From: Hamadaea tsunoensis DSM 44101
GTDB lineage: Bacteria > Actinomycetota > Actinomycetes > Mycobacteriales > Micromonosporaceae
DNA length: 64,000 nucleotides
Assembly: GCF_000428945.1 (NCBI RefSeq)
Contig: NZ_AUAX01000035.1
Location: 15,368 to 79,367, forward strand
Reading direction: 5' to 3'
The position numbers were made by a program, and so were the translations under genes. The notes beneath the pieces were generated by a model that was not told the origin of the DNA, did not search any database, and saw only the letters and a program-made list of their open reading frames with translations. Positions within the stretch are counted from its first letter, which is position 1. The number at the start of each line of letters is the position of its first letter. Shown here in pieces: positions 6,179 to 43,093 of this stretch.

Positions 6179-6191
6179 CGTCGAGGAGTGA

Positions 6192-7697: not shown

Positions 7698-7736
7698 GGT
7701 CTTCCCTCCGGCAGACGGCTGTGATCGGGTTCGAGC

Positions 7737-11145: not shown

Positions 11146-11164
11146 TCCGCACCTCAAGATCAAA

Positions 11165-11979
11165 TTCAAGATCTTTTTAAAGATTTTGTCCCGGGTTCGT
11201 CGATCTCACTTCCGCTCCTCCCGCGGGAGACCGTTGCGCCCCTATCGCTGCGCTCCGGGGACTCCACTGCCAGCACAGTGGGGCGAAGCATCGTTCACCG
11301 TCGTCCGGTCACCGTTTACCCCGAACCCCGCCCCGGCCTTTGTCGCGACTGTCCGAAATGGTGGTTGGGTGGGTCGGCTTGCTGGTGACCGTTCGCGGCG
11401 GGGATGTAGTTTTCGGGGCTGTTCTCTCGATCCATTGCGGCTGGGATGTCGATTCGGGCTGGTTTTCTACATCCGCCCGCTGTGGATCTTGGGTGCGGGT
11501 GCGTTTTTACATCTCGGCCGCTGTGGATCATGCCCAAGCCGTCAGGCCGTCCCGGGTGGTCCGGGATGCGGGAACGGTCTTCCGTCATGTGGGCGCCGGG
11601 CCTGGGTTTCTTGATCGTTTGCGGCTGGGGTGTAATTCTGGCCCGATCTGCATGATCGTTTGCGGGTCAGGTGTAGCAATAGCCGGTCAGTGCGCTCCGG
11701 AACCGTAAACGATCATGCGGGAGGCGGCTGTTCTGCACCTCAGCCGTAATCGATCACCCGCCCGACCGGGCGGGCGGCCGCACAAGTTGGACAGTCGGGA
11801 CAAAGTCCGGTGGGGGTTGGGGTGAGAGGGTGACCGGGCCGCGGTGGATGATGCTTCGCCCCACAAACCTGGCAGTGGAGGTCCCGCCCGGGTTTGGCGG
11901 GGCCGGAGCGGTCTCCCGCGCGAGGAGCGGAGGTGAGATCGACGAACCCGGGACAAAATGCTCTCACGGATCTTTATTA
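11165..11979. mobile_element. MITE-like non-autonomous element copy A (~815 bp) with long terminal inverted repeats, no credible ORF
   Basis: Left end TTCAAGATCTTTTTAAAGATTTTGTCCCGGGTTCGTCGATCTCACTTCCGCTCCTCCCGCGGGAGACCGTT is the reverse complement of the right end AACGGTCTCCCGCGCGAGGAGCGGAGGTGAGATCGACGAACCCGGGACAAAA...GATCTTT; in this copy the TIR extends to ~130 bp; second copy at 41008-41831. Confidence 0.6.
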
Positions 11980-13896: not shown

Positions 13897-16377
13897 CTAC
13901 CCGATCCTGTCAACTCGGGCGGACCGGCCGTCTTTGCGTACCTCGAAGCGGACAGGTATGCGTTCGGCCAGCGCCGCGACGTGGGTGACGACGCCGACCA
14001 TCCGGTCGCCGCGGGCCGCGAGGTTCTCCAGGGTGGCCGCCACCGTGTCCAGCGTGGCGGAGTCGAGCGTGCCGAACCCCTCGTCCAGGAGGATGGATTC
14101 GAGGCTGGCCGTGTGCGCCAGGCCGGCCAGCTGGTCGGCGAGGGCGAGCGCGAGCGCCAGGGAGGCCTGGAACGTCTCGCCGCCGGAGAGCGTACGCACG
14201 GCGCGGGTCAGCCCGGCGTCGTGGTGGTCGACGACGTAGAACTCCCGCGCCCGGTGCACGAGGTCGTACTGGCCGCCGGACAGCTCCTGCAGGATCGTCG
14301 AGGCGCCGAGGACCAGCGCGTCGAGGGCCTCCTCCAGCAGCCAGGCCTCGAAGTTGTTGGCCTTGAGGTGCTGGGCGAGCATGGCCGCGACGACCTTGTC
14401 GGCCTCCACGGCGGCGCGCTGCTGACGGAGATCGTCGGCCCGCCGCCGCGCGTCCAGTACGCGTTCCCGCCCCGCCGCCGCCCGCTCGACCGCGATGGTG
14501 ACCGCCTTCTCCAGGCCGGCGATCTCCTTCGGCATCATGACCTCGGCGATCCGGAACCATTCGGCGACCTTGGCCAGCAGTTCCTGTTCGGTGCGGCTGG
14601 CCTCGGCCACAGCCTGCTCGGCGGCGGCCCGGTCGGCGCCGACCTTCCCGGCGGTCGTGGCCGCCCAGTCGGCCAGCACCTGCCACGCGACCCGCAGATC
14701 GTCGCGCTCGACCGGCGGCGGAGTGCCGATCGGGGCGACCGTGTCGCGGGCGGCGTCGAACACCCGCCAGGCCGAGCGCAGCTGATCCTCGGCGCGCTGC
14801 AGCTGCGTCTGGGCCGCCCGCTGCCGCTCGGCAGCCTGCTTGCGTTCCACTGTGGATCGTTCGAGATCGGTTTCGGCTTCGCGTCGTACCGCCAGGCGCG
14901 CGGCCAGCTCCTCGTCGCTGGGCGCGGTCGCGAGCGCCTCCTGGATCCGGGCCACCTGCTGGGCCAGTTCCTCGACCTTGGCGCGCACGGAGGCGAGCCG
15001 GCGGTCGGTCTCGCGGGCGGCCTGGTCGCGTTCGCCGCGCGCCGCCTCCGCCTTCTCCGCCGCCGCCCGAGCCTGCTTCAGGCGGTCCTGGGCGGCGACG
15101 GTGGCGCCGACCGACCGCTGCTGCGGCAGGGTCGTGACGATCTGCTCGCAGACCATGCACGCCTCGCCGGCATGCAGCAGCGGGCGCAGGACGGCGACCC
15201 GGTCGGTGTTGCGGGCGTCCTCGAGCACCTGCTGAGCGTGGCCGAGGGCGGTGGCCGCGCTGTCCGCCACACCCCGGACCCGGTCCAGGTCGCGGACGGC
15301 GGTGTCGTGCTCCTCCTGTGCCTTCGCGAGCGCGGCGGCGCCCTGCTTCTGCCGGGCCAGACCGGCGGCGAGATCCTGCCGCGACTTCACGAAAGCCTGG
15401 GTCTCGGCCGGGTCCGCGGTGGTCGCCAGCCGCGCCCTCGCCTTCTCCTCGGCCTCCTCGGCGGCGGTCAGCACCTCGGCCGCGGCCGACACCCGTTGCC
15501 GGGCCTCGTCGGCGGCCCCCGCGAGGTTGACCGCTCCGGCGTCCGGCCGGATCCGGCCGAGCGCGGCCAGCTGGCCGTCCAGGGTGGCGAGCTTCTCCAC
15601 GGCGGCCTGCCGGCGCGCGTCCAGCGCCGTGAGCCGCGGCGCCTCGGCCGCCAGCCGGTCGGCGAGGTCGCGGACGGCGGTGACCCGGTCCTCCGCGTCG
15701 GCCAGCCGCTCGTCCGAGGACTCCTCGGTCGCCTCGGCCAGGACGCGCTCCGTCGCCGCCAGCTGGTTGACGGCGGCCTTCTCGCGCTCGGCGGCCTTCT
15801 CCCGGATCTTGTCGTAGACCTCCAGCCCGAGCAGCTTGACCAGGATCTCCTGGCGCTCGGCCGGCTTGGCGTGCAGGAACGCCGCGAACTCGCCCTGCGG
15901 CAGCAGGATGCACTTGATGAACTGGTCGTAGGGCAGGCCGACCACGTCCACCACGGCGCCGTCGAGCTCGTTCGGCGTACCGGCGAGGATCTGGCCCAGC
16001 TCGTCGATCGGCTCGCCGCCGTCGAGGGAGGCCGGATTGAAGTTGTTCGGCAGCAGCTGCAGACCCGCGTGCTTGGTCGCGACCCGGCCCTTGCCGTCGC
16101 GGCGCACGACCCGGCTCACCGCGTACCGGCGGCCGCCGGACTCGAAGATCATTCGAACGGCCGCCTCCACACTGGACGGAGCCAGCGCGTTCGCCACCGT
16201 CTTGCCGCTCCACCGCGGCACCTGGCCGTAGAGCGCGAAGCAGATCGCGTCGAGCAGCGTCGACTTGCCGGCGCCGGTCGGCCCGACGAGCGCGAAGAAG
16301 TCCGCGTCGGTCAGGTCGACGACCGTCGGCTCCCGGAAGACCGTGAACCCCCGCAGGTCCAGCCGGAGCGGGCGCAC
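13897..16377 (-). CDS. sbcC: SbcC/Rad50-type SMC-like ATPase (short, 826-aa form)
   Basis: N-terminal Walker A LVGPTGAGKSTLLDAICFALYG; long coiled coil with a CMVC zinc hook (CxxC); C-terminal signature LSGGETFQASLALALAL and Walker B/D-loop ILLDEGFGTLD. Confidence 0.85.
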   Translation of the reverse strand: MRPLRLDLRGFTVFREPTVVDLTDADFFALVGPTGAGKSTLLDAICFALYGQVPRWSGKTVANALAPSSVEAAVRMIFESGGRRYAVSRVVRRDGKGRVATKHAGLQLLPNNFNPASLDGGEPIDELGQILAGTPNELDGAVVDVVGLPYDQFIKCILLPQGEFAAFLHAKPAERQEILVKLLGLEVYDKIREKAAEREKAAVNQLAATERVLAEATEESSDERLADAEDRVTAVRDLADRLAAEAPRLTALDARRQAAVEKLATLDGQLAALGRIRPDAGAVNLAGAADEARQRVSAAAEVLTAAEEAEEKARARLATTADPAETQAFVKSRQDLAAGLARQKQGAAALAKAQEEHDTAVRDLDRVRGVADSAATALGHAQQVLEDARNTDRVAVLRPLLHAGEACMVCEQIVTTLPQQRSVGATVAAQDRLKQARAAAEKAEAARGERDQAARETDRRLASVRAKVEELAQQVARIQEALATAPSDEELAARLAVRREAETDLERSTVERKQAAERQRAAQTQLQRAEDQLRSAWRVFDAARDTVAPIGTPPPVERDDLRVAWQVLADWAATTAGKVGADRAAAEQAVAEASRTEQELLAKVAEWFRIAEVMMPKEIAGLEKAVTIAVERAAAGRERVLDARRRADDLRQQRAAVEADKVVAAMLAQHLKANNFEAWLLEEALDALVLGASTILQELSGGQYDLVHRAREFYVVDHHDAGLTRAVRTLSGGETFQASLALALALADQLAGLAHTASLESILLDEGFGTLDSATLDTVAATLENLAARGDRMVGVVTHVAALAERIPVRFEVRKDGRSARVDRIG

Positions 16378-17517
16378 TCAGCTCACCTCCTGGTACAGCT
16401 GCTCGAACAGGCGCTGCGTCGCGGGATCGTCGTGGCCCCGGTCGCGCAGGTAGTCGGCGAAGAGATCGGTGGGAGAGCGCTCGGCGCGCGTCGTCCGGCT
16501 CGGCTTGTCCCCGTCCAGCAGGGCGGGGTCGACCCGGATCTCCAGCGCGCGCGGCAGCATCTCCTGCACCTTCTCCCGCAGCCCGGCGTGCGGCTTCTCC
16601 TGCACGATCACGCGCAGCCAGTCCTCGCCCGGCTCCAGCGAGGCCAGCTCCTCCAGCGTCCCCCGGACGGTACGCAGACGCGTCGTCACCGGCAGCGGCA
16701 CGGCCCGGACGAGGGCCGTCGTGTCGGCGGTCGCCTCGACGACCGTCACCGACGGCTCGTTCTCGCCCTCGCCGAAGTCGATCGCGATCGGGCTGCCGCT
16801 GTAGCGCACCGGGCACGCGCCGGGCATCGTCTGCGCCCGGTGCAGGTGGCCCAGCGCCACGTAATGCGTGTTCGACGGGAAGACGGTGGTGGGGACGGCG
16901 TACCCGAGGATGGTGTGGGCCTCCCGCTCGCCGCCGCCCATCGCCGCGCCGACGACCGTCAGGTGCGCGGTCACGAGGTTCACCGCGGCCGGGTCGGAGA
17001 AGCCCTCGGCCGCGATCGCCGACAGCAGCCGGGCGAGGTGGTCGGCGTAGGTGCTGTGGGCCTCGGCCTGGGTCAGCTCGAACATGTCCAGCGCGCGGAC
17101 CGCGTACCGCTGGGAGAGGAAGGGCAGGGCGATGCACCGCCACGGCTCGCCGCCCGGCGTGACCCCGGTGATGAGGTGGTCGTCCGGCTTGTCCGAGACC
17201 CGGCCGCGCAGGTGCAGGTTCTCGGTCTCGGCGAAGACCCGCAGCGCGTCGAGGGCCGGGCCGTTGTCGTGGTTGCCGGCGATCACGATCACCTCGGCGA
17301 CCTGCCGCAGCGCCGCCAGCGCCCGGTAGACGACCTTCTGCGCCTCGGGCGTCGGTGCGGCGGTGTCGAAGAGGTCGCCGGCCACGATGATCAGGTCGGG
17401 CCGCTCCTCGCGGGCCACGCCGATCACCGCGAACAGCGCGGCCAGCTGCTCGTCCGACCGGGACTGTCCCTTGAGGACCTTCCCGACGTGCCAGTCGGAG
17501 GTGTGCAGGATCTTCAC
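16378..17517 (-). CDS. sbcD: SbcD/Mre11-type calcineurin-fold nuclease
   Basis: MKILHTSDWHVG...IIVAGDLFD...GNHD...GHLH phosphoesterase motifs; its start abuts the sbcC gene. Confidence 0.9.
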   Translation of the reverse strand: MKILHTSDWHVGKVLKGQSRSDEQLAALFAVIGVAREERPDLIIVAGDLFDTAAPTPEAQKVVYRALAALRQVAEVIVIAGNHDNGPALDALRVFAETENLHLRGRVSDKPDDHLITGVTPGGEPWRCIALPFLSQRYAVRALDMFELTQAEAHSTYADHLARLLSAIAAEGFSDPAAVNLVTAHLTVVGAAMGGGEREAHTILGYAVPTTVFPSNTHYVALGHLHRAQTMPGACPVRYSGSPIAIDFGEGENEPSVTVVEATADTTALVRAVPLPVTTRLRTVRGTLEELASLEPGEDWLRVIVQEKPHAGLREKVQEMLPRALEIRVDPALLDGDKPSRTTRAERSPTDLFADYLRDRGHDDPATQRLFEQLYQEVS

Positions 17518-31000: not shown

Positions 31001-33001
31001 TTACCGGGCGGGCTCGTCCTCGGAGGACTTCGCCTGCGACGGCAGGGAGAGCTTGCCCTCGCCGAGGGCCCGCATGATCACCGCGGCCAGCCCGTCGAGG
31101 CTGGATCCGCCGGTGACGAGGACCTCCGGCACGATGTTGATGTTGCCTTCGGCGATCGCACCGGCCACCGCCACGAGGGCCGTCGGCATCTCGCCGATCG
31201 CGCTGGTCTGGGCCTCGAAGCCGGTCGCCCGGGCGACCCCCATGGCCTCGACCGCCTTCGCCTCGGCGAGACCGATCGCCTGGATCTTGTCCGCGTCGGC
31301 CTGACCGGTGAGCCGCGTGTACGCCGCGTCACCGCCGGCCTGCGCCTCGCGGGCCTTCGCCCGGTTGCCGTTGATCTCGACGGAGACCTGGGCGGCCGCG
31401 AGTTCCGCCTGCATGTCGGCGGTACCGCGGGCCTTCTCCATCTCGACGCGGGCGGTCTGGGCGAGCTGCTGCTCCTTGTACGTGGCGCGTTCCTGGTTGG
31501 CGATCTCGCGCCGGGTCAGCACCTCGACCAGCTCCGGCGGGAAGGTGACGTCCTGGATGTAGACGCCCTTCGTCTCGATCTCGTACCCGGCCAGGTAGCG
31601 GGTGACCACGCCGTGCGCGCTCTGCTGCACCTCCATGCGGGTCTCGATGAACTTGACCGCTTCGAGCTGCTGCAGGGTGTTGCGGAAGTGGTTGCCGACG
31701 GCGGACTGGAGCACCTCGTTCACGAGGTTCTTCATCGTGCCGACCATCGAGATCACCTTCGGCGCCCGCTGATCGGGGACGTGGATCTGCACCTGGAGGT
31801 CGATCGTGAAGACGAAGCCCTCCCGGCTCTTGCCCACGATCGGCTCCAGCCGGGCGTCCAGGTCGTGCGCCTGCGAACTGGCGTTGGCCCAGTTCAACGT
31901 CAGGATGAAGGTCGGGACCAACTCCGCTGAATAGATCCGGGGGTTGATCGCGTACTTGCCGGTGCGCAGGGGCTCCTGCCAGATGCCCCGGTGTCCCGGC
32001 CGGACGATGCTGCCGAATTTGAACTCCACGCCGGACGTGTCCAGCGTCGGCAGGCCCACGAAGGACTTGATCACCGCCACCTCGCCCTGGTTCACCACGA
32101 GCATCGCGACGAGCTCTACGCGTACCAGGAAAGGGTTGAGCAGGTAGGCCCCGTAGAGCAGGGGGTCGTGCTGCAGGCCGATGCGGCCGCCCTTGTCCAG
32201 GAAGGCCTGGAAGTCCTGGTAGTTGTTGTGCAGCTCGTTCTTGGAGCCGAGCAGGAGATCGATGATCTCGGCGTCCTGGGTCGCGGGCAGGGTCTCCAGC
32301 TGGGTGACGTCGTCGAAGCCGCCGAGGCGGCTGGCCAGGTCGCCGGAGTCGAGCGGCTCGCCCTCCAGGGCGGTCACGAGGCCGACCATGTCGACGTTGC
32401 CCTGCGGCGCGATGACGGTGACCTCGAGGTGCTCCGGGCGCAGCTTGAAGGCCGCGGGCGTGAGCTTGTTGTCGTGCGCGAGGGTGGCGAACTCGGGCGC
32501 CACGGGCAGGCCGAACACGCGGCGCGCGGTGAGCACGAGGAAGCCGACCGGGTGGATCGGCATCAGCGTGCCGGGCGGCAGCACGGGCCGCTGTACGCCC
32601 TTCTCGCCCGCGTTGCCGATGAAGCCCCGCAGGTCCGAGAAGTTCCCGAAGGACGGGTGGTAGAAGGCGCTCTTGGCGCCGATCGGCAGCGGGCGGCCCA
32701 CCTGGGAGATGACCACGCCGATCTCGCCGGCCTGGATCTGCACCCACGGGTACTTCGTGACCGAGTAGACCGGCCACAGCTTGAACCGCGCGCCGGGCAT
32801 CAGCAGGTCGGCCTGGTGGCCGGCCTCGCCGCGGAACGCGATCGGGTTGTCGTCGGGCAGCTTGCGCCCGAACTTCTTCGTCACCAGTCCGACCTGGGTC
32901 GGGCCGATCCGGTGCCAGGACTTGGCGACGAGAAGCAGGAAGATCAGGAGTACGCCTAGCGCCACGATGACGGCGACGCCCCCGAAAGCGATGTTCTCCA
33001 A
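31001..33001 (-). CDS. Flotillin-like SPFH/band-7 protein (YqiK family) with N-terminal TM and long coiled-coil C-terminus
   Basis: N-terminal TM (VAVIVALGVLLIFLLLVA); SPFH core; Ala/Glu/Gln-rich coiled coil. Confidence 0.75.
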   Translation of the reverse strand: MENIAFGGVAVIVALGVLLIFLLLVAKSWHRIGPTQVGLVTKKFGRKLPDDNPIAFRGEAGHQADLLMPGARFKLWPVYSVTKYPWVQIQAGEIGVVISQVGRPLPIGAKSAFYHPSFGNFSDLRGFIGNAGEKGVQRPVLPPGTLMPIHPVGFLVLTARRVFGLPVAPEFATLAHDNKLTPAAFKLRPEHLEVTVIAPQGNVDMVGLVTALEGEPLDSGDLASRLGGFDDVTQLETLPATQDAEIIDLLLGSKNELHNNYQDFQAFLDKGGRIGLQHDPLLYGAYLLNPFLVRVELVAMLVVNQGEVAVIKSFVGLPTLDTSGVEFKFGSIVRPGHRGIWQEPLRTGKYAINPRIYSAELVPTFILTLNWANASSQAHDLDARLEPIVGKSREGFVFTIDLQVQIHVPDQRAPKVISMVGTMKNLVNEVLQSAVGNHFRNTLQQLEAVKFIETRMEVQQSAHGVVTRYLAGYEIETKGVYIQDVTFPPELVEVLTRREIANQERATYKEQQLAQTARVEMEKARGTADMQAELAAAQVSVEINGNRAKAREAQAGGDAAYTRLTGQADADKIQAIGLAEAKAVEAMGVARATGFEAQTSAIGEMPTALVAVAGAIAEGNINIVPEVLVTGGSSLDGLAAVIMRALGEGKLSLPSQAKSSEDEPAR

Positions 33002-33122
33002 TGTGGCCTCCAGCCACGAGAAGGGTCGATCAAGACGCTAGACCCTGTCCGCAAGCGGATGTTCGCCGCCAGCACATCTGACCGCCATCGATGTGTCCGC
33101 CGGGTGCCGTACCAACAGCGCC

Positions 33123-34376
33123 ATGACGCAGGCGATCAGCCCACCGACCCGCGCCGAGCAGCGCGTACAGCGTGTCGCGCATTTCACCGACACCTATCTG
33201 CCGCGGCGCGACGGGGTGGTGACGTCGCTGCGGACGTTGTGCCGGGAACTGGACGCCGACGGGTGCGCCACGGTCACCGTCGCCCCGCGCCACCGGGAGC
33301 AGCCGCCGTCCACCGACCTGCTCACGCTCCGCTCGGTGCCGTGCGGCGTGGCCGATCTGCGGCTCGGCGGCTGGCCCACCGCCGCCGCCCTCGAACGTGT
33401 CGCCCACCGGCGACCCGACCTCATCCACGTCCACACGCCCGGGCCCATGGGCCTGCTCGGCACGATCGTCGCGCGCCGGCTCGGCGTACCGCTGGTGCAC
33501 AGCTATCACACCGACCTGTACGCGTACGCCGAGGCGTACCGGGTGCCGGCCAGGGCTCTGGAACTCGGCCTGCAGTACTACGCCCGGCATCTCGGCGCGC
33601 CGGGCCGGTGCGGCCAGGCGGGCGAGATCAGCCGCCGGCACCGGGCGCTGGACGGTCTGCACAAGCTGCTGCTGGGCCGGGCGGATGCCGTGATCGTCCC
33701 GACGCCGGCGGTGCTCGAACGGGCCCACCTGCCCGTCCCCGCCGAACGGATCTTCCTCGTCCCCGCCGGGGTCGCCGCGCGTCCGGTCACCCCCGCGGAG
33801 GTCGCCGCCTTCCGTACGCGCTGGGGCCTGCGCGAGGACGACGCCGTGGCCCTGTTCGTCGGCCGGGTCAACCGGGAGAAGGGCGTCGACCTGCTGATCT
33901 CCGCGTTCGCCCGGGTCGCCGCACGGGTGCCGGCGGCCCGGCTGCTCCTGATCGGAGCGGTCTACGAACCCCGCTGGGTACGCCGCCTGCTCGCCGCGGC
34001 CGGAGTGGAGTCCCGCGTGGTGATCACCGGTCAGCTGCCGCCGGAGGAGGTCGCGGCCGCGTACGCCTGCGCGCGCGTGTTCGCCTTCCCGTCCCTCACC
34101 GACACCCAGGGACTCGTGCTGCAGGAGGCGGCGCTGGCCGGCGTACCGTCGCTGCTCTGCGATCCACAGCTGCACCGGACCGGAGTGCTCGGCGAGACGG
34201 CTCTGCTGGCCCCGCCGCTCCCCGACGCGTACGCGGAGATGCTGACCGCGCTGCTCACGAGCCCGGGGACGGCCAAGGCGGCCGGGGCGCGGGCCCGGGA
34301 GCGCGCGATGCACCACACCCCCGCCCGGTACGCCGCCACGATGCGTGACGTCTACGCCTTCGCAGCGTCACGATGA
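33123..34376 (+). CDS. GT4-family glycosyltransferase
   Basis: N-terminal RVAHFTDTYLP motif; C-terminal GT4 E-x7-E region (PSLTDTQGLVLQEAALAGVPSL). Confidence 0.75.
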   Translation: MTQAISPPTRAEQRVQRVAHFTDTYLPRRDGVVTSLRTLCRELDADGCATVTVAPRHREQPPSTDLLTLRSVPCGVADLRLGGWPTAAALERVAHRRPDLIHVHTPGPMGLLGTIVARRLGVPLVHSYHTDLYAYAEAYRVPARALELGLQYYARHLGAPGRCGQAGEISRRHRALDGLHKLLLGRADAVIVPTPAVLERAHLPVPAERIFLVPAGVAARPVTPAEVAAFRTRWGLREDDAVALFVGRVNREKGVDLLISAFARVAARVPAARLLLIGAVYEPRWVRRLLAAAGVESRVVITGQLPPEEVAAAYACARVFAFPSLTDTQGLVLQEAALAGVPSLLCDPQLHRTGVLGETALLAPPLPDAYAEMLTALLTSPGTAKAAGARARERAMHHTPARYAATMRDVYAFAASR

Positions 34377-34390
34377 GTGTCTATCATGGC

Positions 34391-34487
34391 CGCCAAGATC
34401 CGGTTTGGATCAGGTTTTCGCACGTAATCTTGGCCCAAGATTCGGGTGATTTCCCTGATCCAAACGGGATCTTGGGGGCGGGACCCG
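34391..34487. repeat. Palindromic intergenic repeat, copy 2, between convergent gene ends
   Basis: GATCCGGTTTGGATCAGGTTTTCGCACGTAATCTTGGCCCAAGATTCGGGTGATTTCCCTGATCCAAACGGGATC. Confidence 0.6.
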
Positions 34488-34498
34488 CGGGGTAGCGG

Positions 34499-35401
34499 TC
34501 AGGCGGTGACGAGGGAGAGGTGGGTGGGGGCGACCTCGATCGCGACGCGCTGGCCGAAGGCCAGGGTCAGCCGGTCGTCCTCGATGCCGTCCGCGAAGCA
34601 GACCAGCTGCTCGCCCTCGCTCGTCAGTTCCAGCCGCCGGCCGCTCTCGACCAGCCCGGCGGTCAGCGTGACGCCGGTCGCGGGGGAGGGCCAGGCCTCG
34701 CGGACGAACCAGGCGAGCTCGGCCTGCTCGGGCGCGGGCAGCGCGGGCGAACTGGCCCGCTCGCGGGCGATGGACGCGCACCAGCCGGTCGCGCCCGTAC
34801 CCGTCCCGGCGATCACCCCGGACGACGACTGCCGCTCCCGGCGTCCGTCCGGTGTGGACAGGGCGTACCGGGCGGACTGGTGGCTGGTGTGGCCGAAGAA
34901 GATCTCGTTGAGCCCGGTGATCCGCTGGCCGTCGTCGAGGGTCGCCATCGCCATCGTCCGCCGCTGCACCGCCGCCCGCCCCGCCTGCACCGCCGGCAGC
35001 AGCCCCGCGACCTGCCCGGCCCGCAACGGCACGAGTACGCCGGCGTTGCGCCCCGGCTCCGGATCTACCCCGAGGACCGGCTGGCCGGACAGGTACTTGG
35101 CGACGTTGGCGACCAGCCCGTCGGGGCCGACGGCGACCACGATGTCCTCGGGCCCGAACAGGAACCGGGACAGGTCCGCCCGGCTGACCGAACCCCGCCG
35201 CCACGAGGCCGGAATGGCGGCGCTGACCGAGATCAGCGCCGCCTCCAGCGCGTCGTGCCGCACCTGCACCTCGTCGAGGCTGCGCTTGCGCTGCTTGAGG
35301 AAGTAGCCGGCGGCGGCGCGCGTACCGTGGCGGTCGAGGAGCTCCTCCAGCTCGCTGTGGCGCGACACGATCACCACCCGCGGCGCGAGCGAGCTGCTCA
35401 T
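34499..35401 (-). CDS. ATP-NAD kinase-family protein with a variant GGDG motif (GPDG)
   Basis: VVAVGPDGLVANVAKYL in place of GGDGT; NEIFF (NE/D short motif); conserved glycine-rich C-terminal region; ATGA overlap with the upstream SPFH gene. Confidence 0.55.
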   Translation of the reverse strand: MSSSLAPRVVIVSRHSELEELLDRHGTRAAAGYFLKQRKRSLDEVQVRHDALEAALISVSAAIPASWRRGSVSRADLSRFLFGPEDIVVAVGPDGLVANVAKYLSGQPVLGVDPEPGRNAGVLVPLRAGQVAGLLPAVQAGRAAVQRRTMAMATLDDGQRITGLNEIFFGHTSHQSARYALSTPDGRRERQSSSGVIAGTGTGATGWCASIARERASSPALPAPEQAELAWFVREAWPSPATGVTLTAGLVESGRRLELTSEGEQLVCFADGIEDDRLTLAFGQRVAIEVAPTHLSLVTA

Positions 35402-36465
35402 GTGTTCTTCGTACGCCGTTGCGCGGGCACCTCGCCACCGCCCGGGGCCAGCCGCTGCAGGAGATCGGTGACGACGTCCGGGGTGATCGTGAGGGCCTTG
35501 ATGTCGGGCAGCTTCCCGGCGAACTCGCGCACGGTCACGGACTGCAGGACGGCATCCGGCAGGTCCCGGTACGCCGCGAGCCGCGCCGCCTCCTTCTCGG
35601 CTTCGGCGAGGCCGAGCGCGCGGACGGCGGCGGCCCGGGCGTCGGCGAGCACCTTCTCGCGTTCGGCCTGCCCGGCCGTGGCCAGCTTCTCCCGTTCGGA
35701 CTGGCCCTGCGCCTCGGCGAGCTGCGCGGCCGCGTCCAGTTCGGCCTGCCGCCGGGCGTTGGCGCCGTGCTGCTCGACCAGCTGCTGCTCTCGCCGGGCG
35801 AGCTCGATCTTGTTCTGCAGCTCGTTCTCGGCGATCGCCCGCTCCTGCTCGACCGCCTGGGCGCGGCGGGCGTACGTGGCCCGGTCGGCGTCCGCCTGGA
35901 CCGTCTCCCGGGTCGGCGTCTGCAGGGCCCGCTCCAGCTCCGGCTCGGGCCGGATGGCGACCACGCGCGCGCTGACGACGCGTACGCCGAGATCGGAGAG
36001 CCGGGCGTCCTCGGCGAGCGCGGCGGAGACGGCCTCGCGCACCGGCGAGATCCCCGCGGTGAGGGCCTCGGCGAGCGGGAGGCGGGCCAGCAGGTCGAGT
36101 GCGGGCTGCTGGGCGAGCTCCGCGAGCAGCGTGGCCACCTGGTCGAGCGGGCGGGCGGCCGCGGCGCCGGTGGCCGGGTTGATGGAGAAGTCGAGGCGCG
36201 AAGCGGCGGCCGCGGGGTCGGCGACGCGATAAGTGACCGTCGCCTGGACGGTGATGTCGCTGAAGTCGGCCGACCGCGCGTGGAACAGCAGCGGCAGCTC
36301 GCGGTCGTCGACGGGGACCTCGCTGAGCACGGCGGTCAGCGGCCGGTACCAGAAGGACAGGCCGACGCCCTCGCGCTTGACCCGGCCCTTGGCGTGGTGC
36401 CTGATCCAGGTGGTGGGGGTGCTGCGCAGGTGCCGAAGGAAGAACCGACGGGAGATGTCGGCCAT
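35398..36465 (-). CDS. SPFH/band-7 domain protein with Ala/Glu-rich coiled-coil C-terminus
   Basis: SPFH core (TVQATVTYRVADP...); coiled coil; middle gene of a three-gene operon. Confidence 0.7.
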   Translation of the reverse strand: MADISRRFFLRHLRSTPTTWIRHHAKGRVKREGVGLSFWYRPLTAVLSEVPVDDRELPLLFHARSADFSDITVQATVTYRVADPAAAASRLDFSINPATGAAAARPLDQVATLLAELAQQPALDLLARLPLAEALTAGISPVREAVSAALAEDARLSDLGVRVVSARVVAIRPEPELERALQTPTRETVQADADRATYARRAQAVEQERAIAENELQNKIELARREQQLVEQHGANARRQAELDAAAQLAEAQGQSEREKLATAGQAEREKVLADARAAAVRALGLAEAEKEAARLAAYRDLPDAVLQSVTVREFAGKLPDIKALTITPDVVTDLLQRLAPGGGEVPAQRRTKNT

Positions 36466-36480
36466 GGGGGGAGTCCTTTC

Positions 36481-37170
36481 CTACGCTCTATGGGGGGTCT
36501 TCGCGTCCCCGGGAGTCTTCGCGGTACGGCGGGACAGCATTCCGGCGAGCCGGGAGAACACGATGATGAGCAGCCAGGAGAACTCGGCGTAGTCCGGCTT
36601 CGCGAAGGCGATCGGGATGGACAGCGCGAAGACGAACGCGGCCACCCCGGCGCCGACGATCATGTTGTGGCTGACGTGCGCCGGCGTACCCTTGCGCCAC
36701 AGCTTCTGCCGGTTGGCGGTGATCACCATGAGGATGAGGGCCAGCGACCAGAGGATCATCGCGCTCGCGTAGAAGACCGGGCCGAGCGGGCCGCCGTTGT
36801 CGACGCTGAGCAGCCGCGTTCCGAACGGCACGACCACGATCGCGAACAGGCTCACCATGTTGAGGAAGACGAGCCGGCCGCTGAGCACGTTGATGCGCTG
36901 GAAGAACCGGTGGTGCTCCCACCAGAAGAACGAGATCACGGCGAAGCTGATGGCGAAGGACCGGTACTCGTCTCCTCCCGCCAGGAACTCCACCCACACC
37001 TCATGGGTGCTCTTGCCGAGGCCCTCGGGCACCGGCAGCTCCAGCGCCAGCAGCGTCAGCGCGATCGCGATCACGGCGTCGGAGAAGTAGATGGTCCGTT
37101 CGAGGCTGTGGCCCGGCTCGTCGAGGTCGGCGGTCGTTTCGGCGGTCGTCGTCACGGCGTCATTCTGCAA
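36481..37170 (-). CDS. DUF1211 / TMEM175-like membrane protein (putative K+ channel homologue)
   Basis: Signature RTIYFSDAVIAIALTLLALEL in TM1 (TMEM175 family FSD..AIA.TLL); six predicted TM segments. Confidence 0.65.
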   Translation of the reverse strand: MQNDAVTTTAETTADLDEPGHSLERTIYFSDAVIAIALTLLALELPVPEGLGKSTHEVWVEFLAGGDEYRSFAISFAVISFFWWEHHRFFQRINVLSGRLVFLNMVSLFAIVVVPFGTRLLSVDNGGPLGPVFYASAMILWSLALILMVITANRQKLWRKGTPAHVSHNMIVGAGVAAFVFALSIPIAFAKPDYAEFSWLLIIVFSRLAGMLSRRTAKTPGDAKTPHRA

Positions 37171-37262
37171 TACGCCCGACAGTTGTGGGACTCGCCGGTC
37201 GCCCGCCGTCTACGCTCGCCCCCGGTTCCGCCCGGCCGGGCGGTCAGGCTCAGGGAGACTCC

Positions 37263-37895
37263 ATGGCGGTCGTCAGGCGTACGGGCAACGTCGTACCACA
37301 TCAGACAGCAGCGGCAGCACCCGCGACACCGGCGGCGTCGGACACCGCGGCGGCGCCGACCAAGCCCGCCCACCTGTGGGCCGTGGCGATCGGCGTCGGC
37401 TTCGTCGCGGCCGGCCTGCTCGGGGGGTACCTGATCTGGAACGGCATGCACGCCAACACCTTCCGCGCGACCAGCGAAGGATCCATCTTCGCCGCCCTGG
37501 TCGTCTTCACCGCCGCGGTCGAGCGGGTCATGGAGCCCTTCACCCGCTGGCTGCCCGGCAAGACCGCGCAGCAGAAACTGGACTGGGCGATCGCCGCGAT
37601 GGAGAACGGCGTCGGCAGCGTCGTCAGCGCCGCGGACGCCAAGGCCGGGGCCGAGCAGGCCAAGGCGGACAAGGGCGTCATCGCCTGGGGCATCGCGACC
37701 GCGCTGGCCACGCTGTTCTCGGCGGGCAGCGGGTTCTACATGCTCCACATGATCGCGTCGAATCCGGACTGGAACGTGATCCCGCAGTGGCTGGACGCGC
37801 TGATCACCGGCCTGATCGTCGGCAGTGGAACCAAGCCCGTGCACGACCTGATCAGCCGCGTACAGCAGGCGAAGGACAAGGTCGCGGGCCTGTAG
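37263..37895 (+). CDS. Hypothetical membrane protein (3-4 TM segments)
   Basis: ORF with SD GGGAGAC 6 nt before the ATG; hydrophobic segments; no recognisable family. Confidence 0.45.
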   Translation: MAVVRRTGNVVPHQTAAAAPATPAASDTAAAPTKPAHLWAVAIGVGFVAAGLLGGYLIWNGMHANTFRATSEGSIFAALVVFTAAVERVMEPFTRWLPGKTAQQKLDWAIAAMENGVGSVVSAADAKAGAEQAKADKGVIAWGIATALATLFSAGSGFYMLHMIASNPDWNVIPQWLDALITGLIVGSGTKPVHDLISRVQQAKDKVAGL

Positions 37896-38004
37896 CTCCT
37901 TCTCTCCTCTCCCCCTCTTCCGGCGATCTTGCGCGAATGTTCGGGCCTGTCGGGCATTCCGGACGAATTTTGAGACATTCGTGCAAGATCGTCGGGAGCG
38001 GAGA

Positions 38005-39405
38005 TCAGTTCTTGCGGGACCCCAGGAGCCAGCCCTTGCGGACGGGGCCGGATTCCGGGCCGCCGAGTTGCAGCCGTTCGGGGGTGATCACCGGCAGTTC
38101 TCCGGTCGGCTCGGACAGGCCGGGGACCGGCGGCCGGACGATCGGTGCTGCCCGGCGCTGGGCGGGGATGGCCGGCGTCGGGACCGGTGCCGTCGCCGAC
38201 GCGTGGAACGGACAACGGCCCAGGTCGCGGGCTGTCTCGTCGAGGTAGAAGTTGGGGCGCTGGTCCGCTTCGGGGTAGTACCGGTGGAAGACCGGCGAGA
38301 TCGAGCCCGACATCGGCGGCACGAGCCAGGTCCAGTCCCCGGGGACGGTACGCCCCGACCGTTCCTCGCGTTCGATGTGCGTCAGGAAGTGCCGGGACTC
38401 GGTGTGGTGGTCGGCGATCTTCACGCCGGCCTGCTCGAACGACCAGAGGACCGCGCGGTTGAGCTCGACCAGCGCCCGGTCCCGCCAGAGGGTCGTCTCG
38501 CGGCCGGTGTCGAGGCCGAGCCGGGCGGCGATGACCGGCAGCTGGTCGTAGCGGTCGGCGTCGGCGAGGTTGCGCGCGCCGATCTCGGTACCCATGTACC
38601 AGCCCGAGAACGGGGCGAGCGGATAGTGCACGCCGCCGATGGTCAGCCGCATGTTGGAGATCGCCGGTACGCCGTGCCACCGCAGCCCCAGCTCGGCGAA
38701 CCACGGCAGGTCGGGGTGGCTGAGCGGCACTTCGAGGACGGCGTCCTCGGGCAGGTCGACGAGGTGGGGTTCCTGCCCGGGTTCCTGCAGGACGAGCGGC
38801 AGGATGTCGAACGAGCTGTGCTTGCCCCGCCAGCCGAGCTCCGACACCGCCTCGGTGAACTCCACGTACGCCTGGTCGCCGAGCCCGTCGCGGTAGCCGG
38901 CGTACCGGATGAGCTGCTCGTTCCACAGCACGGTACGCGGCCGCCCCGGCACGGCCTGCGGGAAGATCGAGATGACCGGCCGCAGGCGGCCCCGGTTCAC
39001 GCCCCGGCCGGAAGCCATCAGCAGGTGCTCGACGAGGTGCTCGGCGGTGGCCTCGACGGTGGTGACCCCGCGCAGGTCGCGGACGACCAGACTGTTCCAG
39101 TAGAGCCGGCCGATGCACCGGCTCGCGTTGCGCCACGCCATCCGGGCACCGTGCGCCAGTTCCGCGCGGGTGTGCGCGTACGTGCCGAGGGCGGCGATCT
39201 GCTCGCGTACCTGCTCGATCCGGTGTGCCGCCTGGGCGTCCCCGCCGAGCTTGGGGTTCTCGGCGTACACCCGTTGCAGGAAGTCCGCTGCCTCGTCGGG
39301 ATCGGTGGGCTCGTTGTGGAACTGGCTGAGGGGCGCATCACGATAGCCGGGGGGCGGGTTCATTCCGTCAGTTATTGGTGTGGCTTGATGCGGCGTGTCG
39401 GACAT
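38005..39405 (-). CDS. nos: Bacterial nitric oxide synthase oxygenase domain with a ~70-aa Pro-rich C-terminal extension
   Basis: GARMAWRNASRCIGRLYWNSL (heme Cys loop); RYAGY; WYMGTEIGARNLAD; end-to-end alignment to bsNOS; start codon uncertain (39405 or 39363). Confidence 0.85.
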   Translation of the reverse strand: MSDTPHQATPITDGMNPPPGYRDAPLSQFHNEPTDPDEAADFLQRVYAENPKLGGDAQAAHRIEQVREQIAALGTYAHTRAELAHGARMAWRNASRCIGRLYWNSLVVRDLRGVTTVEATAEHLVEHLLMASGRGVNRGRLRPVISIFPQAVPGRPRTVLWNEQLIRYAGYRDGLGDQAYVEFTEAVSELGWRGKHSSFDILPLVLQEPGQEPHLVDLPEDAVLEVPLSHPDLPWFAELGLRWHGVPAISNMRLTIGGVHYPLAPFSGWYMGTEIGARNLADADRYDQLPVIAARLGLDTGRETTLWRDRALVELNRAVLWSFEQAGVKIADHHTESRHFLTHIEREERSGRTVPGDWTWLVPPMSGSISPVFHRYYPEADQRPNFYLDETARDLGRCPFHASATAPVPTPAIPAQRRAAPIVRPPVPGLSEPTGELPVITPERLQLGGPESGPVRKGWLLGSRKN

Positions 39406-39485
39406 AATGTGCGACACGCGTGGGCCACACATGACCGAATGTCGATGCCGCTCGGACGGGGGAGCCCTTCCCGGTGACCGTCCGT

Positions 39486-40115
39486 CTAGGCGACGGCCTC
39501 CCGCACCGCCGGGCGCAGCGCGTACACGACACCGGTCGCGAGCAGGAACTGGGCCAGGATGTAGGTGGTCATCACCCAGATGTCCGACGGCCACAGCTGC
39601 GGCCGGTCGGCCAGTCCCATCGCGAGGATCGCGTCGGACACGACGAACAGCAGCCCGCCGAGGCCCGTACGCAGGCCGTAGCCGGCCGACGTCGCGCCGG
39701 TGGCGATCAGCAGCAGAGAGTAGGCCGCCACCGGGACGCGCAGACCCGCGTCCAGCCCCGGCCACAGCCACACGATCAGCAGCAGCCACACGACCAGGTA
39801 GGCCGCCGGGATCCACGGCCGCCTGCGCAGGCCCGCGAAGGCGCCGTTGCGCACGAAGTACGTCACGTAGCAGGCGTGCCCGACCGCGAAGCACCCCATG
39901 CCGACGATGAACCAGCCGTCGAAGCCCAGCGTGATGTCGCCCGCCGCGCCGAACAGCAGCGCCGCGACGATCGGCTTCGGCCCCCGCCGCGTCGCCACCC
40001 ACAGCGCCAGCGTGGGCACCAGCACCCACTTCGTCAGCTGCTCCAGCCAGTGCGGCCCCGTTTCGAGCGAGACCAGATGAGCCAGACCCACCATGGCGTA
40101 CGCGACGAGGATCAT
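39486..40115 (-). CDS. YhhN-family membrane protein (TMEM86/lysoplasmalogenase-like)
   Basis: Eight TM segments with YhhN motifs (FGAAGDITL...FVVSDAILA); ATGA overlap with the upstream hydroxylase gene. Confidence 0.65.
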   Translation of the reverse strand: MILVAYAMVGLAHLVSLETGPHWLEQLTKWVLVPTLALWVATRRGPKPIVAALLFGAAGDITLGFDGWFIVGMGCFAVGHACYVTYFVRNGAFAGLRRRPWIPAAYLVVWLLLIVWLWPGLDAGLRVPVAAYSLLLIATGATSAGYGLRTGLGGLLFVVSDAILAMGLADRPQLWPSDIWVMTTYILAQFLLATGVVYALRPAVREAVA

Positions 40116-40960
40116 GCGTCTCCCTCCGAGCGGGACGGCTGCCAGCCCGGGCCGCCGAAGACACGGCCGAGGCGCTCACGCCAGGTCGTGGCGGCCTTCA
40201 GGTCACGGCCGATGGACGCGTACTCGTGCAGGGCCACGCGCAGCGGGTTGAAGGTGTCGATGTTCTTGGTCAGGCCGTAGACGGGCCGCTCGGTCTCCGG
40301 GGCGAACGAGCCGAAGAGCCGGTCCCAGACGATCAGGATGCCGCCGAAGTTGCGGTCCAGGTACCCGCCCTGCGAAGCATGGTGTACGCGGTGGTGCGAC
40401 GGCGTGTTCAGCATGAACTCGAACGGCCGGGGCAGCCTGTCGATGCGCTCGGTGTGGATCCAGAACTGGTACACCAGGTTCACCGAACTGCAGAACGCCA
40501 GCACCGCCGGGTGTACGCCGAGCGCGATCATCGGCAGGTAGAACAGCCAGCTCGTGAAGCCGGTCCACGGCTGCCGGAGGGCGGTCGACAGGTTGAACCG
40601 CCGGCTGGAGTGGTGCACGACGTGCGACGCCCACAGCAGCCGGATGTTGTGGTGGCCCCGGTGCGACCAGTAGTAGAAGAAGTCCTGGGCCAGCAGGCAC
40701 AGCAGGATCCACTGCCACTCGATCGGTACGCGTACCGGCGTGACCGTGTAGATCGCCGAGTACACGAGGGCCGGGATGATGCCCCAGAGCGTGTCGAAGA
40801 AGAGGCTGCCCAGGCCCATGGACAGGCTCGTGGCGGTGTCCTTGGCGCCGTAGCCGACCTCGTCCTCGTCCGGATGGAGCCGGTAGGAGATCGCCTCCAG
40901 CAGGGTGAGCAGGATGAACGCCGGGACGGACCACAGCACGACGTTGGGCAGCGCGGGCAT
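40112..40960 (-). CDS. Fatty acid hydroxylase superfamily membrane di-iron oxygenase (sterol desaturase / alkylglycerol monooxygenase-like)
   Basis: Histidine boxes HRGHH, HVVHH and HHRVHH; four TM segments. Confidence 0.7.
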   Translation of the reverse strand: MPALPNVVLWSVPAFILLTLLEAISYRLHPDEDEVGYGAKDTATSLSMGLGSLFFDTLWGIIPALVYSAIYTVTPVRVPIEWQWILLCLLAQDFFYYWSHRGHHNIRLLWASHVVHHSSRRFNLSTALRQPWTGFTSWLFYLPMIALGVHPAVLAFCSSVNLVYQFWIHTERIDRLPRPFEFMLNTPSHHRVHHASQGGYLDRNFGGILIVWDRLFGSFAPETERPVYGLTKNIDTFNPLRVALHEYASIGRDLKAATTWRERLGRVFGGPGWQPSRSEGDA

Positions 40961-41007
40961 GCGCGGGATACTAGCGAGTACTTTTCGCGTTAGGAAGAGG
41001 CTTCAAG

Positions 41008-41831
41008 TTCAAGATCTTTTATAAGATTTTGTCCCGGGTTTGTCGATCTCACGTCCGCTCCTCGCGCGGGAGACCGTTTACCCCCAACCCCTGCCCGGCC
41101 TTTGTCGCGACTGTCTGATGTGGCGGCTGGGTGGATCGGCTGGTCGGTGATCGTTCGCGGTGGGGATGTAGTTTCCGGGTCCATCCTCTCGATCCATTGC
41201 GGTTGGGATGTGGGTAGAGGCTGTTTTCCTGCATCCCGACCGCCGTGGATCTTGGAGATGGGGTGCGTTTTGACGTCTCAGCCGTTGTGGATCACGTCCA
41301 CGCCGTCCCGCTGAGAGCCATAGTCCGTGATGCGGGAACGATCTTCCGCCAGGCGGGCACGGCGCACTGGCTCCTTGATCGTTTGCGGCTGGGGTGTAAA
41401 TCCGGCCCGATCTGCATGATCAATTACGCGTCAGGTGTAGCAGGACCCGGTCAGCGCGCTCCAGAACCGTAAACGATCATGCATCGGGTGGCCGTTTCCA
41501 CACCACAGCCGTAAACGATCACCCCACCGACCGCCGCCCCGCACCCATATCGGACAGTCGCGACAAAGCCAGAACCGGCCAGGGCGGATGGTGACCCCGA
41601 TCCTCAAGATCGTCGACCGCGACCGCCGCAAGCCGGACAGTCAGGACAAGGGCTGGGCGGGGGTGGCGTTGGACGGTGACCGGACGACGGTGGACGATGC
41701 GTCGCCCCAGAAAGCTGGCAGTGGAGTCCCCGGAGCGCAGCGACAGGGGCGCAACGGTCTCCCGCGGGAGGGGCGGAAGTGAGATCGACGAACCCGGGAC
41801 AAAAGAGCTTAAAAGATCTTGAATTTATTTA
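41008..41831. mobile_element. MITE-like non-autonomous element copy B (~824 bp), same orientation as copy A
   Basis: Same ~50-bp TIRs (TTTTGTCCCGGGTTTGTCGATCTCACGTCCGCTCCTCGCGCGGGAGACCGTT / reverse complement at the right end); same internal sub-repeats; a left-arm deletion relative to copy A. Confidence 0.6.
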
Positions 41832-42029
41832 GGAGGTCTGAATTCCGTGTTCGACGCAGGTGGCGGTCCAGCCGGTCGGGACGACCTGGACTTTCATCCG
41901 GCGGCCGCAGTCGCCGCAGAACCGGGGCGGCTCCAGTTCCAGCGCCGCGCGGCACGCGTCGTGGGCGGCCGGCCCGTCGAGGGGCCGACCGCAGCGGGGG
42001 CAGACCGCGAGGCTCACCGGGTCGGTCAC
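41829..42029 (-). CDS. Small (66-aa) zinc-ribbon-like protein translationally coupled to bioB (BsaP-like biotin synthase auxiliary protein candidate)
   Basis: CPRCG...C...CGDCG...C cysteine pattern; GTG start overlaps the bioB TGA (GTGA); its TAA stop lies within the MITE right end. Confidence 0.45.
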
Positions 42030-43033
42030 AGCGTCGCCGAGAGCGCCTTGACCGGCATCTTCAGCTCCTGCAGCAGCTGAAGATCGGCCGACGCCGGCCG
42101 GCCGAGGGTCGTCAGGTAGTTGCCGACGATGACCGCGTTGACGCCGCCGAGCAGGCCGTCCCGCGTACCCAGGTCGCCGAGGGTGATCTCGCGGCCGCCC
42201 GCGTACCGCAGGATGGTCTTGGGGAGGGCCAGGCGGAAGGCGGCGATGGCGCGCAGGGCGTCCTTGGGGTCCATGGTGGGCTGGTCGCCGAAGGGCGTGC
42301 CGGGGCGCGGGTTGAGGAAGTTGAGCGGGACCTCGTGCGGGTCGAGCTCGGCGAGCTGGACGGCGAACTCCGCGCGCTGCTCCAGGGTCTCGCCCATGCC
42401 GATGATGCCGCCGCAGCAGACCTCCATGCCGGAGTCGCGGACCATCTTCAGCGTGCCCCAGCGCTCCTCCCACGAGTGGGTGGTGACCACGTTGGGGAAG
42501 TAGGTGCGGCAGGTCTCGAGGTTGTGGTTGTAGCGGTGGACGCCCATCTCCACCAGCTCGTCGACCTGCTCCTGGCTGAGCATGCCGAGGCTCGCGGCGA
42601 CGTTGATGTCGACCGCTTCCTTGATCGCCTTGACGCCCTCGCGCATCTGCGACATCAGCTTGGCGTCGGGGCCGCGGACGGCGGCGACGATGCAGAACTC
42701 GGATGCTCCGGTCGCGGCCGTCTGCTTCGCCGCCTCGACCAGCGAGGGGATGTCCAGCCAGACCGAGCGTACGGGGGAGGAGAAGAGGCCGGACTGCGAG
42801 CAGAAGTGGCAGTCCTCGGGGCAGCCGCCGGTCTTCAGCGAGACGATGCCCTCGACCTCGACCTCCGGGCCGCACCAGCGCATGCGCACCTCGTGGGCCA
42901 GCTCCAGCGCTTCCGTGACGCGCTCGTCGGGCAGTCGCAGGATCTCCAGTACGCCCGCCTCGTCGAGGCCGATGCCGCGCTCGAGCACCTGTTCACGGGC
43001 ACGGTCGAGGACGTCGGTGTTCTCCGTAGCCAT
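42026..43033 (-). CDS. bioB: Biotin synthase (radical SAM)
   Basis: CPEDCHFC radical-SAM cluster motif; full-length similarity to BioB; start at MATENT. Confidence 0.9.
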
Positions 43034-43093
43034 GATGCGTACCCTACAAGGTCGGTGGGACACCATCGTTGATCATGAGCTGGGGGTGGCGGG

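Follow-up and report, generated by a model that had tools for sequence, protein, structure and literature searches.

In Hamadaea tsunoensis DSM 44101, a member of the Micromonosporaceae with about 70% G+C, we analysed a stretch of 64,000 nucleotides (contig NZ_AUAX01000035.1; hereafter the window) in which three adjacent genes attracted attention: one for a di-iron oxygenase of the fatty acid hydroxylase (FAH) family, one for a YhhN/TMEM86-family protein and one for a nitric oxide synthase (NOS) oxygenase. The FAH protein is 100% identical to one recorded for H. tsunoensis. The initial annotation had placed all three genes at 38005-40960 on one strand, where they indeed lie (the minus strand), and had read them as a single pterin-linked module acting on ether lipids. 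On balance we favour a different view, in which the genes would form two functionally separate units that are joined only in Hamadaea: the FAH and YhhN proteins as a membrane module removing lyso-ether lipids, and NOS as an independent enzyme. The FAH and YhhN genes are a translationally coupled pair, conserved across actinomycetes without NOS. To judge from the sequences, this pair is probably an ether-lipid module, one that likely works without pterin. The adjacency of NOS is a local rearrangement and gives no clue to the function of NOS.

The FAH protein as an AGMO-type oxygenase

We compared the FAH protein with human alkylglycerol monooxygenase (AGMO) and with the human sterol enzymes SC5D, MSMO1 and CH25H, each of these sequences being confirmed by an exact look-up that returned the expected name. 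With BLASTP, residues 33-308 of human AGMO scored 189 bits (E 1e-61, 41% identity over 288 aa), against 41.6 bits for SC5D (29% identity over 139 aa), 36.6 bits for MSMO1 (22% identity) and 29.6 bits for CH25H (25% identity), which bears out the AGMO-like assignment of the initial annotation. A search in a library of 1.84 billion proteins returned 11,999 significant relatives. At this scale human AGMO scores 197 bits, just under the 150th of the 11,999, and SC5D 24 bits; the best 150 of the 11,999 include fish TMEM195 and other eukaryotic homologues, and some bacterial relatives of about 40% identity carry the Joint Genome Institute (JGI) label 'alkylglycerol monooxygenase'. In a rough neighbour-joining tree, animal AGMO nests within the family of the FAH protein and the sterol enzymes lie outside: the protein goes with AGMO, not with the ordinary sterol desaturases that had been considered as its possible kin. 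These comparisons strongly support an AGMO-type enzyme as opposed to a sterol desaturase.

The sole NCBIfam match of the protein is to the OlsE model NF052566, at 54.6 bits for a cut-off of 475; it is therefore not an OlsE member. Its AlphaFold2 model has a predicted local distance difference test (pLDDT) score of 92.5. Foldseek found no significant match to this model in the PDB, where searches by sequence likewise turned up nothing related to the FAH or the YhhN protein. Among 150 diverse representatives of the family, none is a fusion of FAH and YhhN; the additional domains of its long members are different ones (abhydrolase, DUF6134, DUF4833).

Conserved residues and the pterin site

Nine histidines are essential in AGMO (H132, 136, 145, 148, 149, 201, 221, 224 and 225; PMC7911779). 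The three histidine boxes already noticed in the FAH protein are present as HX3H (H100/H104), HX2HH (H113/116/117) and HX2HH (H190/193/194), H169 is the ninth histidine, and all nine (H100, 104, 113, 116, 117, 169, 190, 193 and 194) are invariant in 120/120 orthologues. The comparison extended to the other essential residues Q162, D233, N235, Y236, W243 and D244, with the AGMO lists taken from PMC7911779 and PMC3617469. Five of these are matched, by Q130, D202, N204, W212 and D213 of the FAH protein, and Y236 is replaced by F205, a position that is Phe in 116 of the 120 orthologues. The alignment stops at AGMO residue 308, and some 135 C-terminal residues of AGMO are absent from the FAH protein.

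Does the FAH protein use a pterin at all? Tetrahydrobiopterin is the cofactor of animal AGMO and NOS alike, and in AGMO its binding needs Glu137, next to the second histidine, a residue reportedly confined to AGMO among FAH enzymes; in the E137A mutant the Km is raised 18-fold (PMC3617469). This position is Asn105 in the FAH protein, and Val (114/120) or Ile (3/120) in its actinobacterial orthologues. As far as alignments can tell, the YhhN-paired clade is thus without the one residue that marks pterin dependence, which leaves a module shared with NOS through pterin unsupported and makes another reductant probable. Nor was a pterin-synthesis gene detected by Pfam among 47 open reading frames of the window (all but five short ones); on both counts the pterin link drawn by the initial annotation is unsupported.

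Elsewhere in the family the residue is variable: among 150 other diverse relatives the position holds Glu in 58 and Arg in 49, and the mammalian AGMOs have Glu. The Glu-type relatives are mostly bacterial in appearance, with a few eukaryotic ones (fish TMEM195, a mite protein). The bacterial ones are candidates for true pterin-dependent AGMOs.

The YhhN protein as a probable lysoplasmalogenase

The Pfam match of the YhhN protein (PF07947) spans profile positions 4-182 of 182, and NCBI names the protein lysoplasmalogenase (WP_027346070.1). Catalytic residues have been shown or proposed for TMEM86A/B, namely K43, G81, D82, H104, G182, S189, D190 and Y213 of TMEM86A (PMC11994398, our source for the TMEM86 list). 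In the YhhN protein, K29, G59, D60, H80, G153, S160, D161 and Y185 align to these eight residues; the TMEM86A sequence used here fits all eight published positions and failed an exact look-up. With all eight positions kept and the NCBI name in agreement, the earlier lysoplasmalogenase-like call holds, and the protein is probably a lysoplasmalogenase. Lysoplasmalogenase activity and protection from lysoplasmenylcholine are known for bacterial YhhN proteins of Legionella and M. tuberculosis (PMC9052158).

A coupled pair conserved across actinomycetes

The YhhN start codon overlaps the FAH stop codon as ATGA at 40115-40112. This coupling, rightly pointed out before, is found in other genera as well: the two genes overlap by 4 nt in H. 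flava, in S. rimosus and in two Hamadaea-clade metagenome contigs, L082 and L169, and by 11 nt in N. soli. Streptomyces, Kitasatospora, Nonomuraea, Sphaerisporangium and Actinorhabdospora are among the genera that have orthologues of the FAH protein with 73-87% identity.

We compared 86 further FAH loci, 80 of them metagenome contigs and 6 fetched for named homologues. Where the FAH protein is at least 68% identical and the sequence continues for 400 nt or more beyond its gene, a YhhN gene lies directly 3' of the FAH gene in 11 of the 12 loci (9 of them metagenome contigs). It is also found there in one further locus of at least 68% identity, truncated by the contig end, and in one locus at 58%. 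Below 58% identity, a profile search found YhhN once only, on the opposite strand (L133). The pair is thereby recorded in Hamadaea, Streptomyces rimosus, Nonomuraea soli and 10 metagenome contigs, and the overlapping pairs outside Hamadaea (S. rimosus, N. soli) stand in otherwise unrelated neighbourhoods. We also checked P0345, a Glu-type protein and one of the bacterial relatives that JGI annotates as 'alkylglycerol monooxygenase', and found no YhhN neighbour; the absence of YhhN beside such relatives argues that the pairing is specific to the actinobacterial clade.

The NOS gene as an older resident of the locus

The adjacency of NOS has a much narrower distribution. We examined 80 NOS loci, drawn from different species of actinomycetes and in 72 cases including 2 kb or more of upstream sequence: neither an orthologous FAH gene nor any YhhN gene lies within 10 kb of NOS (0/80), and conversely none of the 86 FAH loci has a NOS gene. 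NOS stands next to the pair only in H. tsunoensis, H. flava and L169. The three-gene arrangement that the initial annotation took for a functional module is therefore confined to Hamadaea, and the conservation with NOS that it called for in relatives ends at the border of this genus-level clade. Even within the clade the arrangement is broken, since in L082 a 5.3-kb pca/IclR block, with two genes on the opposite strand, parts YhhN from NOS.

The related genus Catellatospora shows what the locus looks like without the pair. The order there is sugar-binding protein, two permeases, family 1 glycoside hydrolase (GH1), LacI, hypothetical protein, ACT/GNAT and NOS(+), followed by polysaccharide deacetylase, bsaP(-), bioB(-), bioF, bioD and cytochrome P450(-). 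This framework recurs in the window between about 23 kb and 52 kb, with NOS inverted and the FAH and YhhN genes between bsaP and NOS. Two metagenome-assembled genomes also have NOS near bio genes and no FAH-YhhN pair. In the common ancestor of Catellatospora and Hamadaea, NOS already occupied this locus, between the genes of the sugar ATP-binding cassette transporter, GH1 and GNAT proteins on one side and the bio genes on the other. Because Catellatospora and the two metagenome-assembled genomes have NOS there without the pair, NOS appears to be the old resident and the FAH-YhhN pair the later arrival in Hamadaea.

Elsewhere NOS keeps other company: thrB-rho-NOS...prfA in 13-16 species or loci (the Actinoplanes type), a nearby P450 in 14 Streptomyces and Pseudonocardiaceae loci, and a position before pntA/pntB in 7-8 loci (Saccharothrix, Lentzea, Actinosynnema). 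In Planosporangium flavigriseum there are two tandem NOS genes (L002, 8612-9769 and 10001-11155), both with about 66% identity to the NOS of the window. The gene that accompanies NOS in 4/4 loci of the Hamadaea clade is that of the convergent membrane protein at 37185-37895. In H. flava, L169 and L082 a homologue with 61-64% identity adjoins NOS; the Catellatospora loci yielded none.

Start, tail and upstream region of the NOS gene

The PF02898 match of the NOS protein covers aa 37-391 of 466, with no other domain, and the NOS alignment shows the heme-thiolate motif WRNASRCIGR without variation; the gene ends at 38005. Its probable start is the ATG at 39363 (MNPPPGYRD), where all homologues begin. 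An alternative in-frame ATG lies at 39405, and neither of the upstream starts yields a protein on record. The gap of 80 bp between YhhN and NOS given by the initial annotation is correct for the start at 39405, and becomes 122 nt with the homologue-supported start.

The same annotation drew attention to an unusual proline-rich C-terminal extension, which we recover as a tail of about 75 aa. Its last 71 residues contain 14 prolines (20%), and it is predicted to be disordered, with a pLDDT of about 30 in an AlphaFold model whose mean is 63 and which rests on a shallow alignment. The tail consists of the motifs RCPFHA and PAQR, a variable Pro/Ala-rich linker and a basic end, GGPxxxPxRKGWLxGxRK; these motifs are conserved across NOS of the Hamadaea clade. 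Catellatospora NOS has a related basic end (RKRGLRRLLG), and Actinoplanes NOS has no tail. The CP of RCPFHA, right after the catalytic domain, is kept in NOS of Catellatospora, Virgisporangium and Actinoplanes. The basic terminus RKGWLRGxRK resembles the membrane-targeting peptide of MinD. A hydrophobic-moment test of the terminus as an amphipathic anchor gave no discrimination, and the MinD reference peptide was equally undistinguished; a role of the tail as membrane anchor is speculative. Other homologues are longer still: the Micromonosporaceae proteins P0164 (669 aa), P0169 (742 aa) and P0176 (781 aa) have only PF02898 on record, and their lengths of 670-780 aa imply large extra regions beyond the oxygenase domain.

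No P450 or non-ribosomal peptide synthetase gene adjoins NOS, whose neighbours are the YhhN gene and that of a hypothetical membrane protein. The gene is thus outside any thaxtomin-like cluster with an adjoining txtE-type P450 or peptide synthetase, as had been stated. The nearest P450 (51038-52225) is 11.7 kb off and 25-34% identical to the NOS-adjacent P450s of other actinomycetes.

The spacer between YhhN and NOS contains a near-perfect 23-bp palindrome, GTGTCGCACAT-T-ATGTCCGACAC, at 39395-39417, which overlaps the alternative upstream ATG of NOS. It occurs once in the window, where none is expected by chance. The RNA of the spacer folds at -58.4 kcal/mol (z = -2.56) with stable hairpins. 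A scan of 37800-41900 for promoter and terminator consensus sequences gave no usable match, and the spacer has no canonical terminator. The palindrome could serve a promoter specific to NOS as its operator. The spacer of H. flava, which like that of L169 has only 15 nt, does not contain it.

Proposed role of the pair and competing explanations

What the comparisons above show directly are the gene identities, the family placement, the residue patterns and the fact that the pair is conserved while its adjacency to NOS is not; for the substrates, physiological role and electron donor of the pair we infer the following. The FAH protein would hydroxylate C1' of a 1-O-alkyl ether, the resulting hemiacetal yielding a fatty aldehyde and the glycerol moiety. 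The YhhN protein would act on lysoplasmalogens, whose vinyl ether it would hydrolyse with release of a fatty aldehyde and the glycerophospho-base. The labour would thus be divided between saturated 1-O-alkyl species, left to FAH, and vinyl-ether species, left to YhhN, and together they may clear or consume exogenous lyso-ether lipids, detergent-like membrane toxins, of both chemical types. Such lipids could come from animals, anaerobes or myxobacteria; exogenous substrates fit the protective role shown for Rv1401, the YhhN protein of M. tuberculosis, and the existence in actinomycetes of a lysoplasmalogen-specific phospholipase D (PMC5095149). The reductant of FAH would probably not be a tetrahydropterin. 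NOS would be an ordinary stand-alone oxygenase with a clade-specific disordered tail, and no biochemical coupling to the pair is indicated.

Several points weigh against this reading. The FAH protein has Phe in place of the essential Tyr236 and is without the C-terminal third of AGMO, and its weak match to OlsE keeps other lipid substrates conceivable. PRUB680, the sole bacterial AGMO-like enzyme that has been characterised, is a prodigiosin cyclase and cleaves no ether (PMC6667630). As for NOS, the gap of 15 nt in H. flava and L169 makes co-transcription with YhhN likely in Hamadaea, where NOS may belong to the same transcript as the pair, and a functional link between them may exist in this lineage.

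The most durable of the alternatives, a possible one that we hold to be rather doubtful, accepts co-transcription and nothing else: Hamadaea NOS would have been captured into a bioB-bsaP-FAH-YhhN unit for expression only, gaining a promoter by operon fusion without biochemical coupling. The order bioB-bsaP-FAH-YhhN is identical in H. flava and L082, and the gaps along bioB, bsaP, FAH, YhhN and NOS in H. flava (-4, 29, -4 and 15 nt) speak for such a fusion, as does the lack of a terminator-like site between YhhN and NOS. In H. tsunoensis itself, however, the spacer is 122 nt long and harbours the palindrome, which may be the operator of a promoter for NOS, and an 822-bp element now parts bsaP from the FAH gene.

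The departures from AGMO listed above would also fit a pair that is not catabolic and modifies an endogenous membrane lipid or a secondary metabolite, perhaps by hydroxylation or oxidative cyclisation in the manner of PRUB680 or OlsE, the YhhN protein then not being a vinyl-ether hydrolase. The replacement of Glu137 by Val or Asn would count in the same direction as those of Tyr236 and the lost C-terminal region, and so would the chemistry of PRUB680 and the similarity to OlsE. Aerobic actinomycetes, moreover, are not known to make ether lipids. We nevertheless regard this explanation as unlikely. The neighbourhoods of the pair differ from genus to genus and are non-biosynthetic, which fits a self-contained housekeeping or detoxifying role rather than the tailoring of a pathway product; the high identity of FAH across Actinomycetota families implies one conserved substrate; and both partners point independently to lyso-ether lipids, YhhN by keeping every lysoplasmalogenase residue.

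A single module of FAH, YhhN and NOS, with two pterin-dependent oxygenases that draw on a common supply of cofactor and have ether or other lipids as their substrates, is very improbable. The three genes are co-directional, with gaps of 15-122 nt in H. tsunoensis, H. flava and L169, and FAH truly belongs to the family of AGMO, which in animals shares tetrahydrobiopterin with NOS (PMC3617469). Against these stand the restriction of the adjacency to the Hamadaea clade, the separation of pair and NOS in L082, the presence of NOS without the pair at the same locus in Catellatospora, the absence of pterin-synthesis genes nearby, and the presence of Asn or Val instead of Glu137 in this clade of a family where 58 of 150 other relatives keep it. 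Weakest of all, and hardly to be credited, is a coupling of nitric oxide (NO) to ether lipids peculiar to this lineage, by which Hamadaea NOS, recruited into the FAH-YhhN unit and tethered to the membrane by its basic tail, would act on or regulate FAH through NO or a NOS-bound reduced pterin or folate.

Relation to known systems

AGMO/TMEM195 (EC 1.14.16.5) belongs to the same FA_hydroxylase subfamily as the FAH protein, and the spacing of the motifs is nearly gapless between the two. AGMO is a protein of 445 aa and nine transmembrane segments with a C-terminal hydrophobic region (about 309-445), whereas the FAH protein has 282 aa and no such region; unlike AGMO, it has a gene that shares its operon with a YhhN gene, and both Glu137 and Tyr236 are replaced in it. 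PRUB680 of Pseudoalteromonas rubra, likened here by its description (PMC6667630), is also of the bacterial AGMO-like branch of FA_hydroxylase, and differs in having a pyrrole alkaloid as substrate and no YhhN partner gene. The ornithine-lipid hydroxylase OlsE shares the FA_hydroxylase fold. On the side of YhhN, the 209-aa protein is of the same Pfam family and of similar size (200-240 aa) as TMEM86B and TMEM86A (rat/human), LpYhhN of Legionella and Rv1401. The window NOS resembles those of Bacillus, Staphylococcus and Deinococcus and TxtD of Streptomyces in having neither a reductase domain nor an N-terminal zinc hook. It differs from these by its disordered, basic-ended tail of about 75 aa, restricted to the Hamadaea/Catellatospora clade, and has no adjoining TxtE-type P450.

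In the literature we searched, no YhhN/TMEM86 member is described as translationally coupled to an AGMO-type oxygenase, and no bacterial AGMO-type gene as coupled to a YhhN gene. Each of the protein families is already known; what is new is the conserved FAH-YhhN operon and, within it, a shortened variant of AGMO that has no pterin-binding Glu.

Other features of the window

The coordinates of the features discussed are collected in Table 1. The element of 822 bp between bsaP and the FAH gene has terminal inverted repeats of 90 nt that are 81% complementary. It abuts the bsaP stop codon exactly, with a possible target duplication of about 8 bp (TTAGGAnG), and is missing in H. flava, where bsaP and FAH are 29 nt apart. 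A second copy lies at about 11162-11990, the internal 500 bp or so being about 80% identical. The repeats are imperfect and the ends AT-rich (AAxTTCAAGATCTTTT); the element contains no convincing open reading frame and matches no Rfam family, and Rfam gave no match anywhere in the window. It looks like a mobile element of the miniature inverted-repeat transposable element type, and is context, outside the enzyme module.

Table 1. Features at and around the FAH, YhhN and NOS genes (window coordinates, except for the last line)
Feature	Coordinates	Strand	Evidence
AGMO-family (FA_hydroxylase) di-iron membrane oxygenase, 282 aa	40112..40960	-	Pfam PF04116, 1e-29
YhhN/TMEM86-family protein, probable lysoplasmalogenase, 209 aa	39486..40115	-	Pfam PF07947, 1.5e-31
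YhhN-NOS spacer, 122 nt (80 nt with NOS start at 39405)	39364..39485	-	Sequence
NOS oxygenase, catalytic core	38233..39363	-	Pfam PF02898, 1.4e-144
NOS C-terminal tail, about 75 aa, and stop codon	38005..38232	-	Alignment A1; no Pfam domain
Conserved hypothetical membrane protein, 236 aa, convergent with NOS	37185..37895	+	No Pfam or NCBIfam match
bsaP (biotin synthase auxiliary protein), upstream of the FAH gene	41829..42026	-	NCBIfam NF052237, 5.9e-25
bioB, directly before bsaP	42026-43066		Pfam Radical_SAM and BATS
Non-coding element, 822 bp, between bsaP and the FAH gene	41005..41826	none	Inverted repeat I1
Inserted protocatechuate block of contig L082 (NMT1-like binding protein, FAD monooxygenase, pcaH/G, pcaB, IclR)	4691-9946 of L082		

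Farther from the three genes, a conserved block at 31001-37170 encodes two SPFH/Band-7 proteins (666 aa and 355 aa), a GT4 glycosyltransferase, a homologue of TMEM175-type potassium channels and a 300-aa protein with weak similarity to NAD kinase, whose gene overlaps the second (355-aa) Band-7 gene. H. flava keeps the order TMEM175, 355-aa Band-7, 300-aa protein, GT4. Two other stretches, 5171-8813 and 13897-17517, cover genes of the non-homologous end joining type and an SbcC/SbcD pair. The former encode a LigD primase-polymerase and, some 1.5 kb away on the other strand, an ATP-dependent DNA ligase; the gene of a TAP-like alpha/beta hydrolase occupies the interval. SbcC/SbcD is followed by two large open reading frames (600 aa and 414 aa) without a Pfam match.

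Implications

The outcome for NOS is negative yet useful. For the pair, if our interpretation holds, a compact relative of AGMO, 41% identical to it and confidently modelled at 282 aa, would stand beside a lysoplasmalogenase in Streptomyces and in genera related to it, which would amount to genomic evidence for a dedicated bacterial system covering both classes of lyso-ether lipids. For AGMO itself there is as yet neither a purified preparation nor a solved structure (PMC7911779, PMC3617469), and the FAH protein would be a tractable handle on its chemistry. The natural variation between Glu and Val or Asn at the pterin site would, in addition, make cofactor use in this family directly testable.

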